DNA from: Candidatus Magasanikiibacteriota bacterium
GTDB lineage: Bacteria > Patescibacteriota > Patescibacteriia > Magasanikbacterales > UBA922
NCBI GenBank assembly: GCA_041665025.1
Contig: JBAYJP010000001.1
Coordinates: 110,555 to 174,554, forward strand
Direction: 5' to 3'
Length of the DNA: 64,000 bases
Of the stretch, positions 32,987 through 48,889 are shown one piece after another. Numbering within the stretch: position 1 is the first letter of the stretch; the number at the start of each line of letters is the position of its first letter. A program made the translations under genes and the position numbers. A model generated the notes under the pieces. That model made no database searches. It was not told the DNA's origin and saw nothing but the letters and a program-made list of their open reading frames with translations.

Positions 32987-34357
32987 ATGGCAAAGCAAAT
33001 TAAAAAAGACTTCCAACCACATACACTGGTAACAGGAAAATACCTAGGCAAAAAAATGCGCCGATTTATTATGATTGTGCTCATCAGCGCTTTTTTTATT
33101 GCTTCCCCGCTGGTGATTTTTTATACTGCGGGTTATCGCTATGACTTAATCCAAAGAACCATTAAACAAACGGGGGTACTCAGTGTTGACATAAAACCAA
33201 TTGACGCGGAAATTTATTTAAATGAAGTAAAAATTGAAAAAAAAATACCTATACGCCTCACTAATCGAGCACCAGGAACATATCATATCAAAATCCAAAA
33301 AGAAGGATACAAACCATGGGAAAAAGACATTACCATACAAAGCAACCAAACGACATTTATAAAAGATGTAATCCTGTTAAAGAATGCTGCACCTCAACTA
33401 ATTCCCCACATTCCCGAGAATACCACACAAATATTTGGCTCTGAATTCCATGACAATTTTCTTATCCTGACACAAGATGAAAATACATACGAGATATACA
33501 TATATAATACGCGGACGCAGACAACAGAGTCTCTCATACGAGGCATGAGTGTATCACAACCTCAGATATCTGTCTCTCCTTTCCAAGAAGTTGCATACGC
33601 GCGTTTTGATGAGACAGATGATGGATCGTCAATACTTTATCTGATATCATTATCAAACCTAGAAAAACCAGTGGTCTTGCACTACAACAAGCCTATATAC
33701 ATACAATGGAGTAAAACTGCCAGTGACTCTCCTTTATTTATACAATCAGAAAACACCATTAGGAACATTTCCTTGTCTGGGGTACAAAATATAATTGCAA
33801 GAGCAGTAAGTAGCAGTATATGGTATGTTGATACCAATAACCACGTATGGACATACGACACACATACACTTAATAATCTCAGTACGCAAAAAGTATATTC
33901 TCTTACACAAGAGCCTAGATTAATTCTTGATATCAATGAATATAGAGTCATCACACAGAGCATGGATAATAAAACATTTGTGTATCAGCCGGACAAAGAC
34001 AGACTAACAGAAAAAAGATCTCTGCCAGGTACAAAGATATTTTATAAGAGAGACACAAAAGAGTGGTGGATTTGGTCTGATTGGGAATTAAGCAGTGTAT
34101 ATAATGATGGTGGTATAAACCTGCTTGAGCGCGGTGGAGAAAAAATAAAAAACGCCATGCTGCTTGATTTGAGTGGCGTTATGTTATTTGTCTATGACAA
34201 TAAATTTGCGAGTTTCAATCCGGGATACTATGTACGACACGAACTTCTTCAAACAGACAGTACCATACTGGATACCTTTGTAAACCTACGCCAGCGAAAG
34301 ATATTTTATATGATTAATGAAAATGGAAAAAATAATGTATATGCTCTTGCATACTAG
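32987..34357 (+). CDS. PEGA domain-containing membrane-anchored protein
   Basis: N-terminal TM, then a PEGA motif (TYHIKIQKEGYKPWEKDITI), then a long beta-rich region. Confidence 0.55.
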   Translation: MAKQIKKDFQPHTLVTGKYLGKKMRRFIMIVLISAFFIASPLVIFYTAGYRYDLIQRTIKQTGVLSVDIKPIDAEIYLNEVKIEKKIPIRLTNRAPGTYHIKIQKEGYKPWEKDITIQSNQTTFIKDVILLKNAAPQLIPHIPENTTQIFGSEFHDNFLILTQDENTYEIYIYNTRTQTTESLIRGMSVSQPQISVSPFQEVAYARFDETDDGSSILYLISLSNLEKPVVLHYNKPIYIQWSKTASDSPLFIQSENTIRNISLSGVQNIIARAVSSSIWYVDTNNHVWTYDTHTLNNLSTQKVYSLTQEPRLILDINEYRVITQSMDNKTFVYQPDKDRLTEKRSLPGTKIFYKRDTKEWWIWSDWELSSVYNDGGINLLERGGEKIKNAMLLDLSGVMLFVYDNKFASFNPGYYVRHELLQTDSTILDTFVNLRQRKIFYMINENGKNNVYALAY

Positions 34358-35490
34358 TGTTCCACAATAGCCTTGTCTCCTATAATCATTGAACGGCCCT
34401 CTTCGGAGGGCTTTTTGACAAGCCGAACATGTTTTCCAATCATACTGTTGTGTATATGCAAATCAGTATCAATAAAGCTATGATCAAAAATAATGCTTTT
34501 TTCAATTGTTGCATTTCGTACTTCTGCCCCAGAACCAATAGTTACATGCGGGCCAATACGGCAATGTTCTAACACACAGTTTTCTCCAATGATAACCGGG
34601 CCTAACATAACAACATCATGTGCTACGCGTGATCCCCTGCCTATATGCACATTACCAGAAATCTGGGCTCCCGATTCAACCGTACCATGATTAGGAAAAT
34701 CTTCTGCGGACATTTGATCTAGTAACATTCTGTTTGCATTGAGAAGATCCTCGGGCTTTCCTGTATCTTTCCACCACCCCGTAATTTCTTTCCACCCGAC
34801 ACGATGGTTATTCTTCAAAAGATAGGAATGAATGTCAGAAATTTCGTATTCTCCACGCGCACTTCGCTCAATATGGTCAAACGCCTCGAAAAAAACACGA
34901 GGGCCATACAGATACATGCCAGTGACCGCGAAATTGTTTGGTGGATCCTGAGGCTTTTCTATAACTTTGACGAGGTTGCCCTTGTCATCAAAAATAGGAA
35001 CACCGAATGCCTTTGCATTAGGGACTTGTGCGAAAGCAAGCATACAATCATATTTTTCTTTGCTAAATTTTTCAAATGTCTCTTTCAAACTGCCGAGCAA
35101 AATATTGTCCGACAAATAAAACATAAATGGATCATCTCCAATAAACTTCTGCGCTTCTTTTACCACATGAGCGATTCCCTGCGGTCCGCCTGTTTGTTCA
35201 AAAAATTTGATTTTTATTCCCCAATGTCCTCCATCGCCCACATATTTTGCGAGCTCGGTATCACCTGGGTTAGTATTGATAAAAATCTCTTCTACACCAG
35301 CTTCTACTGCTTTTTCTATAGCATGAAAAATCATCGGCTTATTTGCCAACGGAATGAGGTGTTTATTGATTGTTGTTGTGATCGGATGCAATCGCGTTGC
35401 GTGTCCACCACCGGTTAATATTGCTTTTCTTATTTTCATATAACTTAGTTCATCCCGAGAAGGTCCCAAGACCGACGAGGGATCTTTCAT
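34354..35490 (-). CDS. sugar-phosphate nucleotidyltransferase with C-terminal left-handed beta-helix (long-form RmlA/GlmU-like glucose-1-phosphate thymidylyltransferase)
   Basis: KAILTGGGHATRLHPITT (a G-x-G-T-R-L-type NTP-transferase motif) plus C-terminal hexapeptide repeats. Confidence 0.7.
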   Translation of the reverse strand: MKDPSSVLGPSRDELSYMKIRKAILTGGGHATRLHPITTTINKHLIPLANKPMIFHAIEKAVEAGVEEIFINTNPGDTELAKYVGDGGHWGIKIKFFEQTGGPQGIAHVVKEAQKFIGDDPFMFYLSDNILLGSLKETFEKFSKEKYDCMLAFAQVPNAKAFGVPIFDDKGNLVKVIEKPQDPPNNFAVTGMYLYGPRVFFEAFDHIERSARGEYEISDIHSYLLKNNHRVGWKEITGWWKDTGKPEDLLNANRMLLDQMSAEDFPNHGTVESGAQISGNVHIGRGSRVAHDVVMLGPVIIGENCVLEHCRIGPHVTIGSGAEVRNATIEKSIIFDHSFIDTDLHIHNSMIGKHVRLVKKPSEEGRSMIIGDKAIVEH

Positions 35491-41777: not shown

Positions 41778-42060
41778 GCCCTTCTAGCTCGTGCTTCCCC
41801 CTAACTTATTAGTTCTTTGATAGATTAGGAAGGAAACTTGCATGAGCGGACGAAAAAAATAGTTCTTGTAACCAAAAACAACCATAAAAGGTTGTTTTTG
41901 AAAATTCGTAAATTGAAAATTTATTTGTATCCCTGCCTGCCGGCAGACAGGGAATCCCTTTCTTAAAGATATATTTTTCAAAAAAAAAGGGATTCCTCCA
42001 CTCATCCCGATTTCGCTTCGCTATATCGGGATTCGGTCGGAATGACAAATGTAAACTAAA

Positions 42061-42933
42061 CTAGCAAGACAGTACCTTGTCACTATTCTTCCCTTCTTTC
42101 TTCATCTTCGCATATTTCTCCATGGTATCTCGCAACGCTTCATGGACCTCGCGCATTTCAATACCCAATTTTTCAAGATTTTCTGACGCAAGAAAATTGT
42201 TTGAACGTCCTTTTGTCGCAAGGCCTTGTTTGACCAAATCATCATTTGATATCCATTCATTTGTATGTGCTGGGTCAACTAATTCTTCATACAACGCCAT
42301 AAGTTCACGATGCTTCATAGTACCTGGATTGGTGACGTGAAAAATACCTTCTGCTTTTTTCTGTAATAATTTGTAAAACACATCAACCATGTCATCTAAA
42401 ATAGTCACACTATTTTCTACATCAATTACTTTTGGATAACGTGCCAATTTATCTATGAGATTCCGCTCCGACGGCATCCAGTCTATAGGCATACGAATAC
42501 GAGCTATCCCAACATTTGGCAATGTGGAAAGAACCAAATCAGCTGCCCACTTTGCGCGTGAGTATGTTGGTAATGGATTCCCAAAATCATTCTCTCTCCA
42601 TTTTTTATCTTCATGAGGAGAATCACCGTAATAAATACATCCAGAACCCATGTGCAATAAATATATTCCTCGTTCCTGACAGGCTTCTGCGAGTATGATA
42701 GGAAGTTTTGTATTACCCAAAATCGTTTCAAGTTGGTGTTCATCGCACCAATCTACATTTGGTTTTCCGGTAACGCCGGCTGCGTTTAAGACTACATCTG
42801 GTTTATGCTCATCCAAAAATGACAGCATGTCCTCTTTTGAATTTACATGTTTGTCCGCAAGTACTGCCTCATCACCCCATGCATCTTTGCATCGATGACC
42901 AATGTAACCGTTGCCTATAATTAAAATTTTCAT
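42061..42933 (-). CDS. NAD(P)-dependent sugar-nucleotide reductase/epimerase (dTDP-4-dehydrorhamnose reductase RmlD-like)
   Basis: N-terminal Rossmann fold MKILIIGNGYIGHRC and catalytic YSRAK (YxxxK). Confidence 0.65.
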   Translation of the reverse strand: MKILIIGNGYIGHRCKDAWGDEAVLADKHVNSKEDMLSFLDEHKPDVVLNAAGVTGKPNVDWCDEHQLETILGNTKLPIILAEACQERGIYLLHMGSGCIYYGDSPHEDKKWRENDFGNPLPTYSRAKWAADLVLSTLPNVGIARIRMPIDWMPSERNLIDKLARYPKVIDVENSVTILDDMVDVFYKLLQKKAEGIFHVTNPGTMKHRELMALYEELVDPAHTNEWISNDDLVKQGLATKGRSNNFLASENLEKLGIEMREVHEALRDTMEKYAKMKKEGKNSDKVLSC

Positions 42934-42973
42934 AATTAATATTAATTTATAATTTTGAATTTCAAATTAAAAA

Positions 42974-43981
42974 TTACGCCCGTCCATACCACTTCTCATA
43001 ATATTCCTGATATGCTCCACTCCGACAATCCATCACCCATTTTTGATTCTGTGTGTACCATTCAACTGTTTTCTTCAATCCATCATCTAAACCAATTAAT
43101 GGTTCCCAGTCTAATTCTGTTTGTGCCTTTGAATAATCTATGGAATACCTGCGATCATGCCCTGGCCTATCTTTTACATATTCAATATATGATTCATCTT
43201 TTCCCAAGAGCGCCAGCAATTTCTTCGTCAATTCGAGATTAGTGATTTCTGAATCTTTTCCCCCAAGACAATAGGTGTCGCCTATTCTGCCTTTTTGCAA
43301 AATCATATCAACTCCTCTGCTGTGGTCATCAACAAAAATCCAATCACGCATTTGTTGTCCATCTCCATATACGGGTACTTTATTACCTTCCATTAAATTT
43401 GAAATAAACAATGGAATAATCTTCTCAGGAAACATGTATGGCCCATAATTATTTGAACAATTCGAAATGGTTGCTTCCAAACCATATGTCGTATGATATG
43501 CGCGGACGAGGTGATCTGATGCTGCTTTTGCAGCTGCGTATGGACTGCGTGGCGCGTATCGAGTTTGCTCGTCAAACGATGGATCCTCTGGCCTTAATGC
43601 ACCAAATACTTCATCTGTTGAAATATGATGAAAACGTTTTTTATACTCTCGGGCAGCATCAAGTAATGTTTGAGTTCCTAAAACATTTGTCTTGATAAAT
43701 GCGCTTGGGTCCATGATAGATCTATCCACATGTGTTTCAGCGGCAAAATGTACAATAACGTCTGATTCCTTTACCTTATCAAAAACTAAATCACGATCGC
43801 AAATATCTCCTTTGATAAAAGAATAATGTGGATTTTCTTCAACATCTTTCAAATTTTCCAAATTACCCGCATAGGTCAATACGTCATAATTAAAAATATC
43901 ATCCTGTGGATGTTGTAAAAGCCAATAATGGATAAAATTTGAACCAATAAACCCTGCACCGCCTGTAATTAATAATTTCAT
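42974..43981 (-). CDS. rmlB: dTDP-glucose 4,6-dehydratase
   Basis: MKLLITGGAGFIGSNF, catalytic YAAAKAASD and the RmlB C-terminal region. Confidence 0.9.
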   Translation of the reverse strand: MKLLITGGAGFIGSNFIHYWLLQHPQDDIFNYDVLTYAGNLENLKDVEENPHYSFIKGDICDRDLVFDKVKESDVIVHFAAETHVDRSIMDPSAFIKTNVLGTQTLLDAAREYKKRFHHISTDEVFGALRPEDPSFDEQTRYAPRSPYAAAKAASDHLVRAYHTTYGLEATISNCSNNYGPYMFPEKIIPLFISNLMEGNKVPVYGDGQQMRDWIFVDDHSRGVDMILQKGRIGDTYCLGGKDSEITNLELTKKLLALLGKDESYIEYVKDRPGHDRRYSIDYSKAQTELDWEPLIGLDDGLKKTVEWYTQNQKWVMDCRSGAYQEYYEKWYGRA

Positions 43982-43986
43982 AAGTA

Positions 43987-44424
43987 TTATAGAATAGGCT
44001 GACCTTCGGAATGTTCAAAAAAATCGCGAATTATATTTGCATGATGAAATCCTATATCAATAGGTATATTATCTTTGGAAAAAAATTTACTTTCTATTAC
44101 TTCAATAGTTTCTTGCAAACTGCCTGCAATAATATGTGCAACATAAATCACAGTAACACGCGCTCCCCGAGGATCTTTACCCGTGCTTGTATATACTCCG
44201 TATAATTTATCGATATGAATTTCGACGCCTATTTCCTCATATACTTCTCTCTTTGCGGCCTCAATAGGCTGTTCTTCTTTTATATGACCCCCGGGTAATA
44301 TCCAAAAACCTTTATAGGGCTCGACTCCACGTTTTGTCAATAATATTTCATCTAGTTCATTCAAAATAATGACATCGGCAGAACATGTTGGATATTTTTT
44401 TTCTAATTCAAAAGGTATTTCCAT
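43987..44424 (-). CDS. NUDIX hydrolase
   Basis: Nudix box GGHIKEEQPIEAAKREVYEEIGVEI. Confidence 0.8.
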   Translation of the reverse strand: MEIPFELEKKYPTCSADVIILNELDEILLTKRGVEPYKGFWILPGGHIKEEQPIEAAKREVYEEIGVEIHIDKLYGVYTSTGKDPRGARVTVIYVAHIIAGSLQETIEVIESKFFSKDNIPIDIGFHHANIIRDFFEHSEGQPIL

Positions 44425-44425
44425 A

Positions 44426-45376
44426 TTATTTTTCTTGCACTTTATGTCTGATATCTTTCATCGCAGCATCTAGATGATATGCCAAAGATGGCAAATCATC
44501 AAGAGGAAAATATCTAAAATCATCCATTTCGACATTTTTGACAAAATGATGGCTCTTGATCTTGATAAAATACAAAATCATAGCACGTGCAAAACGTGGA
44601 CTCATACCTTTGTCAGAATATACATGAAATAAATCACCTATTGTACATTCTACGCCGAGCTCTTCGCGGACTTCACGTTTGAGACACTCCTCAATAGACT
44701 CATATACATACATATGACCCCCAGGCAAATCCCATGTATCTTTGAATGGATCCTGTGCTCTATGCGCAAGCAGAATTTCATTTTGTTCATTGAGCACAAT
44801 ACCCATCGCAACCGTATGCATAAAATCATTATCGCGATAATTGTATATTGTTCCAAAATTATCCGTATAAAATGAGCGAGATGCGGGGATCAATTTTCCT
44901 GAATGTTTTTTTTGTATATATCTACGAAGAACTTTGTTATGATTATAACCAAGCCTTTTCCAAAACAAGTAGTGAGGTTTTACCCACTTACATTCTTGGA
45001 CAAATTCAGTAGGAATATCAAAGGTACACCCCGGTTTAGGCCGTGCAGCAAAAATAACTTGAACTCCATAAAAGCGCGGATCTGCAGGGGGCTTCGAATC
45101 TGGATCGCCAAGCACATCTATAAGATACGAAAGTTCAATATCCAACCCTATTTCTTCTTTTACACTGCGTATAGCAGATGCCTGTATGTTATCATCTTCT
45201 ACATACGCGTAGCCGCTTGGCAAAATCCATTTATCTTTCATCGGAGGCACGCCACTTTTTTCAATCAAAATTTCTCCCTGTTCATTTTCAATTATGAGAT
45301 CAACACAAAGCACTGCATATCTCTGCTGTTTCAAAAAAGGAATTTGGGTAATTGTGTCCAAAAACCGAGCTGACAT
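44426..45376 (-). CDS. tandem-domain NUDIX hydrolase (two Nudix boxes)
   Basis: SGYAYVEDDNIQASAIRSVKEEIGL and PGGHMYVYESIEECLKREVREELGVE. The start is set at MSARFLD, which gives a 2-nt gap to the upstream NUDIX gene. Confidence 0.75.
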   Translation of the reverse strand: MSARFLDTITQIPFLKQQRYAVLCVDLIIENEQGEILIEKSGVPPMKDKWILPSGYAYVEDDNIQASAIRSVKEEIGLDIELSYLIDVLGDPDSKPPADPRFYGVQVIFAARPKPGCTFDIPTEFVQECKWVKPHYLFWKRLGYNHNKVLRRYIQKKHSGKLIPASRSFYTDNFGTIYNYRDNDFMHTVAMGIVLNEQNEILLAHRAQDPFKDTWDLPGGHMYVYESIEECLKREVREELGVECTIGDLFHVYSDKGMSPRFARAMILYFIKIKSHHFVKNVEMDDFRYFPLDDLPSLAYHLDAAMKDIRHKVQEK

Positions 45377-45378
45377 AT

Positions 45379-45915
45379 TTAATGTGAAAAATAATAATGT
45401 GTAAGCGCCCACGCAGCCATAGTTTGTCCATCCCAAATTTCATTATTTCGTATCATATTATCCACTTCATCTGGACGACGATAGAGCAATTCAATTTCTT
45501 CCGTATCATCTGTATGTTGCTCATGTTGTTCAGTTACATGCACGAGAAATACGTGACACGTTTCTTTTATCAGACCATTGGCAGTTTCAAATGTTCCCAT
45601 TTTTACAAATTCTTTTGCGGTGTATCCAGTTTCCTCAGAAAGTTCGATTTGTGCAGCCTCAAGCGGAAGTATACCTTTCCTTACCCCGCCACCGGGAAAT
45701 TCAACGCTCTGTTTGTCAACTAGATATCTATGTTGCAGTGTAAGCACTAACCGGCCATCGGGCAATACGGGAACAAGCATGACCATGCCTGGAGTTTCTC
45801 CATAATAATAATCGCCTATTTGCCCATTTGGTTTTTCATACGTATCATGCTTATACGTCCACCAAGGATTTTCGTGCAATATTTCTTCGGTAAGTTTTTT
45901 TAAGTGTTTGGGCAT
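45379..45915 (-). CDS. NUDIX hydrolase (ADP-ribose pyrophosphatase-like)
   Basis: PGGGVRKGILPLEAAQIELSEETGY. Confidence 0.8.
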   Translation of the reverse strand: MPKHLKKLTEEILHENPWWTYKHDTYEKPNGQIGDYYYGETPGMVMLVPVLPDGRLVLTLQHRYLVDKQSVEFPGGGVRKGILPLEAAQIELSEETGYTAKEFVKMGTFETANGLIKETCHVFLVHVTEQHEQHTDDTEEIELLYRRPDEVDNMIRNNEIWDGQTMAAWALTHYYFSH

Positions 45916-45917
45916 AA

Positions 45918-46781
45918 TTAGGTTTCACAATCAAATGATCCTTGTACGACCAATTTTTTCAAAAAATCTACTCTTTTCTTTAACATTAAACGGTAACGTC
46001 TACTTTTGTCTTCCGAGGATCTCAAATCTCCCATATCAAGTATGTGTATTCCTTTAATCTCACCACCTATTTTATTAATACAAAGGTTAAAATCGCCCAT
46101 TGTCTCAACCATATAACCTGTTTTTTCAAAATAGTCTAAAGTTATACATGTAAATTTTCTTAATTGTCTGTTAAATTCCGAATTTACTGATGCTATTCTT
46201 AAAAGATCTTCTACAGTATAACTAAAAAAATTTGACAACTTCCCCTCAACTAGTCTTTGAATCATTGCGGCTCTTGGTTCATTTGAAAATGGATCGTTAA
46301 TTATAAAGTTTGCAGACTCTGGAATTATTTCTGAAATAGATGCATATATCTCTCTTAGCTTTTCATAATTCGTTTGAAAATGCTTTGCTACATCTACCAG
46401 GCTACCCCCTTTTTGTGGTGGAAATAACAACTTCAGCGCCCAAGAAGGACCCTTGTGCTTATTTTTTAGTAGATATACTTTTGCTTCTCCCCCGCCACCT
46501 ATTCTCTCCGAGAATTCATATTTATTAGGGTCAAAGGGTAAATGTTCCACATATTGACGTTTAAAATAACGTTCAACAACTTCTCGACCCAAACCTTCTG
46601 GAGCATATACTAATGCTGCGCGGATTAATGAAACTAAACGGGCATAACGACCTGATGATTCATCATTTAATCTACGCCACAACTCTCCGGTCCCTTTTGG
46701 ACAAGGACCTCTTTCACATGATTCTTCTACTGCGCTAGACAACTTACGCACAAAATGAGGCAATCTATCCCTTTCTATCAT
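45918..46781 (-). CDS. hypothetical protein with protein-kinase-like features
   Basis: Gly-rich loop IGGGGEAKVYLL followed by WALKLL (VAIK-like), later HILDMGDL. The fold assignment is tentative. Confidence 0.35.
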   Translation of the reverse strand: MIERDRLPHFVRKLSSAVEESCERGPCPKGTGELWRRLNDESSGRYARLVSLIRAALVYAPEGLGREVVERYFKRQYVEHLPFDPNKYEFSERIGGGGEAKVYLLKNKHKGPSWALKLLFPPQKGGSLVDVAKHFQTNYEKLREIYASISEIIPESANFIINDPFSNEPRAAMIQRLVEGKLSNFFSYTVEDLLRIASVNSEFNRQLRKFTCITLDYFEKTGYMVETMGDFNLCINKIGGEIKGIHILDMGDLRSSEDKSRRYRLMLKKRVDFLKKLVVQGSFDCET

Positions 46782-46794
46782 ATCCTATTATGGG

Positions 46795-47199
46795 CTAAGC
46801 AAATAAAGTACTAATTTCTTGAACACTCGTGTGCCCCGGCGCATTTACAATAGCATGCATATTACTGCCACCATCGTCATTCCATCGCGGTATAATATGA
46901 ATGTGCAAATGCGGGACTACCTGTCCGCCGGCCTCGCCATGATTCCATCCTACATTATATCCGTCTGGCTGGAGCACATGATCGATTTTTTCTTGCGTGC
47001 GTTTTACTGCAGTCATCAAAAATCCTAAGAGCTCATCATTAAGTTCAAGTAGTGTTTCTGTATGCAATTTGGGGACAACGACCGCATGACCTTTCGCGCG
47101 CGGGTAGATATCCAAAAAAGCAAGCACATGATCATCTTCGTACACGGTGTAGTTTGGAATTTCTTTTTTTATAATTTTGCAAAAAATACAATTGTCCAT
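46795..47199 (-). CDS. HIT (histidine triad) family hydrolase
   Basis: CIFCKI...HLHIHIIPR histidine triad. Confidence 0.85.
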   Translation of the reverse strand: MDNCIFCKIIKKEIPNYTVYEDDHVLAFLDIYPRAKGHAVVVPKLHTETLLELNDELLGFLMTAVKRTQEKIDHVLQPDGYNVGWNHGEAGGQVVPHLHIHIIPRWNDDGGSNMHAIVNAPGHTSVQEISTLFA

Positions 47200-47212
47200 A
47201 TTAGTAAAATAA

Positions 47213-47279
47213 GTTCATAGCCAATAGCCAATAATTCATAGTCGTCAACCTATTGGCTATGAACTACTGGCTATGAACT
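47213..47279. repeat. palindromic intergenic repeat, family B (gttcatagccaatag ... ctattggctatgaac)
   Basis: Copies also at 52804-52887 and 58161-58234. Confidence 0.6.
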
Positions 47280-48889
47280 TTCAAATTATACAAGGTATGA
47301 TCTTTGAAAAACATTTTTTCTTCTAAAGAAAGCCCAAACTGTCCCAGATAATCAACAGTGTTTTGATAATGTGCCTCGTCCAACTTCGGAGTGAGATAAT
47401 AGACTGGATTTCCCGCAAAAACGAGTTTACCCAATGCCTGACCCACCCGAGAGTCAAAAAAACGGACAATTACTTGCCTTTCAGGCCATACAAATTTATC
47501 CTCTCTATCAGATACGATTATAGCATGGGTTTGCGTGCTTGCCAAGATGTCTTTTTTGACTAATTCTACATATTTTAACTGTCCTCGCACAGCCAAAATT
47601 CCATCAACTCCTCTAAACGCTGCATTATAAGACAATAAAGCCATACCAGACAAGACAATCACTCCAAGCAGCCAAGCCCTTTTTTTCTGGGCTATACCCT
47701 GCCAAACACTCCCCACAAACGGCAACATAAGGATAAAAATAGGCAACCAATAGCGTGTGTAGGCAACACCTATTGTCTTCATGCTATAGAGCGTGTCTGC
47801 ACTACTTCCATAGTAAATAAAAAGAAATGATGAAACGAAAATACAAACTATTGCGTATATTTTTTGTGCACGAGTCAAAATTCCTTTTTTCCAATTAAAT
47901 ATAAAAAATGCAAATCCAAACAGTGCGGGAACTGTGTACCACCATTGTATATTGATAAAATAAAACCAAACACTTCGCACAATCATGCCAACACTAACAC
48001 CAAAAGGAAATAAAAATGAATACCAATGTGAAACTCCAATAGAACGAGAGGTAATATATGCACCAATTGGATTTCCATACACCTGTATGTTAAACCACGC
48101 GTATAACCCGATAAAAATTAAACTCGTTATAATCCACGTGAGCAATCGTGAAAATGAAATTTCTTTTCTGTAGGCTATAATGACAATACACATTGCAAGA
48201 CCAATCCATACAATTTCATTTGGCCGCATCAAAATACCAAGCATAAAAACCGACATTCCCAAAATATCGTTTACCATCATCGAAATCCGTTCAAACCTGC
48301 CTGCCGGCAAGGCAGGTCTGTTAAATCTGTGTTCTATTATCATCTTCAAGGGATTCACTAACAAAAACCAAATTCCTATCAACAACAAACTCACAGACGG
48401 CACATTATGAAACATACTTCGTGCCGTGTAATAAAAAAGCACTGGCTGAAAAAATAATAATAGCGAACTGTAGAACGCAACTTCTTTATTGAATATCTTT
48501 TTTATAATTCCATAAAACGCCCACACACCCAAAATTGCAAGAACGGATGTCAAAAACACCATTGCATTCATACCAACTATTTTTGCAATAAGTCCATACA
48601 TCATGGGCATTCCCAAAAATCCAACAGGTAAAATTTCTTTTCCTCCATTTTCTTCTACATAGGTACTGCGCGGATGAATAAATTCATTCAATTCTCCATA
48701 ATCTTGTGGCAAGGAATACGAAAGTTTATTTTCTTTCGCCACTGTGCCAGTAAATACATAATTTGCTGTTTCATCGGGCGAATTAAAAATTCCCGGCACT
48801 GAAAAATTTAAATAATTATATAAAACAAAAAATACTATTGAAAAAATAAGTAGGATGATTTTATGTTTGTTAAGAAAAAAATTATTCAT
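47264..48889 (-). CDS. polytopic membrane protein, GT-C-like (ArnT/PMT-type glycosyltransferase candidate)
   Basis: More than 10 TM helices. It carries the in-frame palindrome cctgcctgccggcaaggcagg (48296-48320) encoding PALPAG. Confidence 0.5.
   Translation of the reverse strand: MNNFFLNKHKIILLIFSIVFFVLYNYLNFSVPGIFNSPDETANYVFTGTVAKENKLSYSLPQDYGELNEFIHPRSTYVEENGGKEILPVGFLGMPMMYGLIAKIVGMNAMVFLTSVLAILGVWAFYGIIKKIFNKEVAFYSSLLLFFQPVLFYYTARSMFHNVPSVSLLLIGIWFLLVNPLKMIIEHRFNRPALPAGRFERISMMVNDILGMSVFMLGILMRPNEIVWIGLAMCIVIIAYRKEISFSRLLTWIITSLIFIGLYAWFNIQVYGNPIGAYITSRSIGVSHWYSFLFPFGVSVGMIVRSVWFYFINIQWWYTVPALFGFAFFIFNWKKGILTRAQKIYAIVCIFVSSFLFIYYGSSADTLYSMKTIGVAYTRYWLPIFILMLPFVGSVWQGIAQKKRAWLLGVIVLSGMALLSYNAAFRGVDGILAVRGQLKYVELVKKDILASTQTHAIIVSDREDKFVWPERQVIVRFFDSRVGQALGKLVFAGNPVYYLTPKLDEAHYQNTVDYLGQFGLSLEEKMFFKDHTLYNLKVHSQ

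Follow-up and report, generated by a model that had tools for sequence, protein, structure and literature searches.

Seven open reading frames of the minus strand occupy positions 42,061 to 47,199 of the window (the whole stretch of 64,000 nt analysed), which comes from a metagenome-assembled genome of Candidatus Magasanikbacteria, a CPR lineage. The initial description of seven coupled minus-strand genes has been confirmed at these coordinates, with domains assigned by profile, and all seven are real genes and not chance ORFs, having orthologues at 27–81% identity in other contigs. The genes, their flanking features and two further members of the locus are as follows.

47264..48889, minus strand: polytopic GT-C/PMT_2-like membrane protein, 541 aa (PF13231, 3.9e-6; LA_3751/2-family putative glycosyltransferase)
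47212..47265, minus strand: REP-like hairpin with a perfect 16-bp stem, then UUAUUUU, in the gap that separates HIT from the membrane-protein gene before it (from the fold)
46795..47199, minus strand: HIT, histidine-triad protein of the Hint branch, 134 aa, opening the run, conserved core (PF01230, 9e-28)
45918..46781, minus strand: minimal protein-kinase-like (PKL) protein, 287 aa, single-genome insertion (from the fold)
45379..45915, minus strand: Nudix178, 178 aa, ADP-ribose/NDP-sugar pyrophosphatase type, conserved core (PF00293)
44426..45376, minus strand: tandem Nudix, 316 aa, addition largely confined to Magasanikbacteria (two PF00293 stretches)
43987..44424, minus strand: Nudix145, single-domain, 145 aa, closest relatives only (PF00293, 1.3e-16)
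42974..43981, minus strand: RmlB, NDP-glucose 4,6-dehydratase, 335 aa (TIGR01181, 471.5 bits, cutoff 365)
42061..42933, minus strand: NRS/ER (UGER)-type bifunctional NDP-4-keto-6-deoxyglucose 3,5-epimerase/4-reductase, 290 aa (RmlD_sub_bind; PDB 4qqr)
41980..42032, minus strand: pair of hairpins with a terminal U9 run, 30–80 nt past the NRS/ER stop (from sequence and fold)
34354..35490, minus strand: long-form RmlA, glucose-1-phosphate thymidylyltransferase, 378 aa (TIGR01208 rmlA_long, 339 bits, cutoff 320)

Coordinates and junction sequences yield gaps of 13, 2, 2, 1, 5, and 40 nt from HIT to the NRS/ER gene, so the tight co-directional coupling proposed from the sequence holds, while the range is 1–40 nt and not 2–41 nt. 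The block is co-directional and tightly packed, and lies within a cell-envelope glycan locus with the order GT4, two large membrane proteins, two CDP-alcohol phosphatidyltransferases, the seven-gene block, PGI/PMI, four GT2 genes, and long-form RmlA; the four GT2 genes bear out the GT2-rich polysaccharide neighbourhood noticed earlier. The RmlA gene is located on the same strand, 7 kb downstream of the block, and in Uhrbacteria-type loci immediately follows NRS/ER. On the other side, the 541-aa membrane protein is a conserved upstream neighbour, in relatives tightly coupled to HIT, with just 1–7 nt at this junction. In this genome the junction holds the hairpin at 47212..47265 (dG –23.6 kcal/mol, z –4.5), whose 15-mer occurs in nine copies in three intergenic clusters, versus 0.09 expected; it is a possible terminator or attenuator, forming the 5′ edge of the unit here. 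The hairpins at 41980..42032 have a non-significant fold z-score (–0.6), and are only suggestive of a terminator-like 3′ edge. Insertions into the same block in this genome comprise the PKL gene, a GIY-YIG gene, and REP-like elements.

The last gene of the run had been taken for an RmlD-like reductase. Its product matches Arabidopsis NRS/ER (4qqr, 162 bits, 1.8e-46) and Mimivirus L780 (7jid, 112 bits), with only 26 bits for Salmonella RmlD (1kbz) and a TIGR01214 rmlD score of 59.9 at a cutoff of 224; hence, a canonical RmlD-type reductase has been rejected, and the PDB scores indicate an NRS/ER-type bifunctional epimerase/reductase instead. Cys99 and Lys162 align to Cys108 and Lys175 of L780 (PMC9614988), and Y124xxxK128 is invariant among orthologues. 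The preceding gene, read as dTDP-glucose 4,6-dehydratase, is indeed RmlB, scoring above the TIGR01181 cutoff. As judged from these family assignments, long-form RmlA, RmlB and NRS/ER make up a predicted route of three enzymes that leads from glucose-1-phosphate to NDP-L-rhamnose without RmlC. Its product presumably serves the GT2 genes nearby, which have weak rhamnosyltransferase-like matches.

Conservation of gene order was assessed in two samples, Magasanikbacteria GTDB species loci (n = 14) and NRS/ER-anchored metagenome loci. The order HIT–Nudix–RmlB–epimerase/reductase is found in 12 of the 14 species loci. Among 26 distinct metagenome loci with at least 1.5 kb upstream of RmlB, HIT and/or Nudix178 precede RmlB in 20 (both in 13, Nudix only in three, HIT only in four), these loci having been picked by similarity to Magasanikbacteria NRS/ER and sharing flanking membrane and CDP-OH genes, so that they are not fully independent lineages. 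Gene order, the very point on which the sequence-only reading had staked its proposal, is thus conserved. The GC content of the metagenome loci is 0.30–0.58, and the identity to the window copy is 38–71% for HIT and 27–71% for Nudix178. Exact protein look-up linked two of the contigs to Uhrbacteria and Komeilibacteria, ranked by NCBI as distinct candidate phyla, and HIT immediately precedes Nudix/RmlB in loci of the Magasanik-, Uhr- and Komeilibacteria types. The conserved core, kept across several CPR lineages, consists of HIT, Nudix178, RmlB and NRS/ER. The tandem Nudix and Nudix145, counted earlier as members of the unit, are later non-core additions largely confined to Magasanikbacteria, Nudix145 having orthologues in five loci only (L003, L012, L095, L098, and L103).

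The 287-aa protein has no match in Pfam or NCBIfam. Its Gly-loop/Lys motif, seen already in the initial reading, is present (IGGGGEAKVYLL...SWALKLL, with K117 invariant in the family), and the structure check suggested there gave a minimal protein-kinase-like fold and not something unrelated. Its family, made up of minimal kinase-fold proteins, carries no annotation, and the few members with a name are from CPR; the window copy has Glu where the family has the catalytic-loop Asp. The gene is absent from every related locus, both in Magasanikbacteria and among the NRS/ER-anchored metagenome loci, and its homologues elsewhere reside in unrelated gene contexts. It is therefore an insertion found only in this genome and not a part of the unit, as had been supposed, and the protein would be co-transcribed with the block by accident of insertion.

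These observations bear directly on the suggested signalling role, by which a dinucleotide or alarmone, e.g., Ap4A, would be made and degraded by the kinase-like protein together with the HIT and Nudix enzymes; a variant of this idea is an anti-phage defence island. The kinase fold is confirmed, and both the HIT and Nudix families include Ap4A-degrading enzymes (HIT matches the Ap4A phosphorylase 3wo5 at 1e-15, and Rv2985 is among fold matches of the tandem Nudix). However, there is no conserved kinase–hydrolase unit, because the kinase-like gene occurs in none of the related loci and its relatives are in unrelated contexts, and the substituted catalytic-loop residue also speaks against this explanation. 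The defence variant draws on domain-level PADLOC matches to ThsC (HIT), PDC-S07 (Nudix), and PD-T4-6 (kinase N-lobe, E 5e-4), but these are generic and lack the partner genes of those systems, and the block is situated in a conserved core-genome region, not in a variable island. We found nothing in support of a signalling module, and with the kinase gene missing from relatives this explanation is largely refuted and very improbable.

The Nudix genes require a finer description. Three genes had been reported to carry four Nudix boxes; the genes stand, while two of the boxes, those of the tandem C-domain and Nudix145, are canonical (GX5EX7REUXEEXGU), one deviates at two positions, and one is degenerate. 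The deviating box is that of Nudix178, where the window copy has Ile at box positions E6 and R14 and no ADPRase proline, whereas divergent orthologues have the canonical box and Pro approximately 15 residues downstream. Its nearest NCBIfam model is NudE, and its PDB matches are NudF (5c7q, 3e-16) and ADPRase (1v8i, 1e-13); by family resemblance Nudix178 is a putative ADPRase/NDP-sugar pyrophosphatase-like enzyme. Nudix145 matches 2yyh (2.7e-12) and GDP-mannose mannosyl hydrolase (1rya, 1.6e-8).

With the listed TTG start at 45436, the tandem Nudix would overlap the gene before it; translation probably begins at the ATG at 45376, since residues 1–16 are already disordered in the model. The AF2 model (pLDDT 90.8) has two Nudix folds, and the protein consists of a degenerate N-terminal Nudix-fold domain and a predicted catalytic MutT-like C-terminal domain: 25 orthologues share an unvarying C-domain box but show no conservation of the N-domain box. 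The catalytic domain is closer to the nucleotide sanitisers MutT, NUDT18 and NudG than to NDP-sugar hydrolases. Full-length orthologues come from only about 14 GTDB species, with titles naming Magasanikbacteria, Parcubacteria, and “uncultured Gammaproteobacteria,” the latter probably mislabelled, and the orthologue of L015 is in an unrelated context.

Some of these similarities might point to NAD turnover, with Nudix178 a true ADP-ribose pyrophosphatase, the tandem N-domain an NrtR-like ADP-ribose sensor, HIT joining in the management of NAD breakdown, and cofactor supply linking them to the NAD(P)-dependent SDR enzymes RmlB and NRS/ER. ADPRases are the best solved relatives of Nudix178, the NrtR Nudix domain is among the fold matches of the tandem protein, and full-length matches include NudC and NUDT12, hydrolases of NAD(H) and NAD caps. 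Yet the match of the N-domain to the NrtR model (4.8e-15, 55.7 bits) is far under the cutoff of 400, the tandem protein has neither the NudC motif nor the zinc site and its rmsd to NudC and NUDT12 is as high as 17–20 Å, no NAD-salvage gene (NadM, NadR, PncB) is present in the locus, and the tandem Nudix is outside the widely conserved core, making such a module unlikely.

A serious rival, if a somewhat doubtful one, is that HIT and Nudix are general house-cleaning and salvage enzymes of nucleotide metabolism (Hint phosphoramidase, ADP-ribose pyrophosphatase, MutT-like sanitiser), placed beside the rhamnose genes in one long, streamlined CPR operon by inherited synteny and having no pathway-specific role. 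Hint-type HIT enzymes are housekeeping proteins kept even in minimal genomes. The protein encoded here, a histidine-triad hydrolase as initially recognized, has mycoplasma HinT as its best NCBIfam match and B. subtilis Hit (1y23, 1.5e-28) as its best PDB match, with the motifs HLHIHII and CIFCKI kept in 13 orthologues. All four hydrolase genes score under the equivalog cutoffs of specific families and look like generic Hint, ADPRase and MutT enzymes. Of 66 single-domain relatives that the tandem C-domain has in other phyla, one is near an RmlB homologue, the others being unlinked to RmlB or HIT. The Magasanikbacteria block is collinear over at least 27 kb, dnaB included, so gene order could be plain inherited synteny, and in this genome it tolerates unrelated insertions. 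Moreover, each of the three Nudix genes has been gained or lost while the rhamnose genes stay; L007 has lost Nudix178, and L008 retains what looks like a pseudogene of it. RmlB–NRS/ER occurs with neither HIT nor Nudix in eight loci (six distinct sequences, two near-identical pairs), and NRS/ER alone in eight.

Against this, the HIT–Nudix178–RmlB adjacency holds at 27–46% protein identity, over 30–58% GC, and in lineages named as different candidate phyla. Overlaps of 4 nt of the ATGA type in divergent loci (HIT/Nudix/RmlB in L105 and L148, Nudix/RmlB in L108, HIT/Nudix in L130) suggest translational coupling. The HIT–Nudix178 pair also tracks the dehydratase when other genes rearrange, remaining beside it in L006, where the downstream genes are swapped for an FdtA cupin and another reductase, in L139, L141 and L146, where NRS/ER is 2–6 kb away, and in L147, where it is on the other strand. 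Finally, the Nudix178 subfamily includes NDP-sugar pyrophosphatases.

Taken as a whole, the data are best explained by control or recycling of the nucleotide-sugar pool in the rhamnose pathway by HIT and Nudix178, a prediction from gene context and family resemblance whose chances we consider about even. Nudix178 would cleave NDP-sugar to NMP and sugar-1-phosphate, and HIT would clear or phosphorolyse nucleotidyl-X by-products, the two serving the pool as a hydrolytic valve or for recycling. The closest precedent is E. coli gmd-fcl-gmm-wcaI-manC (cpsB), where a polysaccharide locus likewise has a Nudix gene inside its operon for 6-deoxyhexose nucleotide sugars, so the earlier statement that such a unit had not been described overstated its novelty. 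The role proposed here parallels that of the Nudix protein Gmm/WcaH, for which a regulatory function has been proposed (PMC10037897), and a UDP-X diphosphatase among cell-wall genes provides another precedent (PMC3655063). In nucleotide-auxotrophic CPR cells, such a valve would limit flux and recover nucleotides. In this tiny, uncultured CPR bacterium, the genes of a pathway providing activated L-rhamnose for the cell envelope are grouped with those of nucleotide-cleaving HIT and Nudix enzymes.

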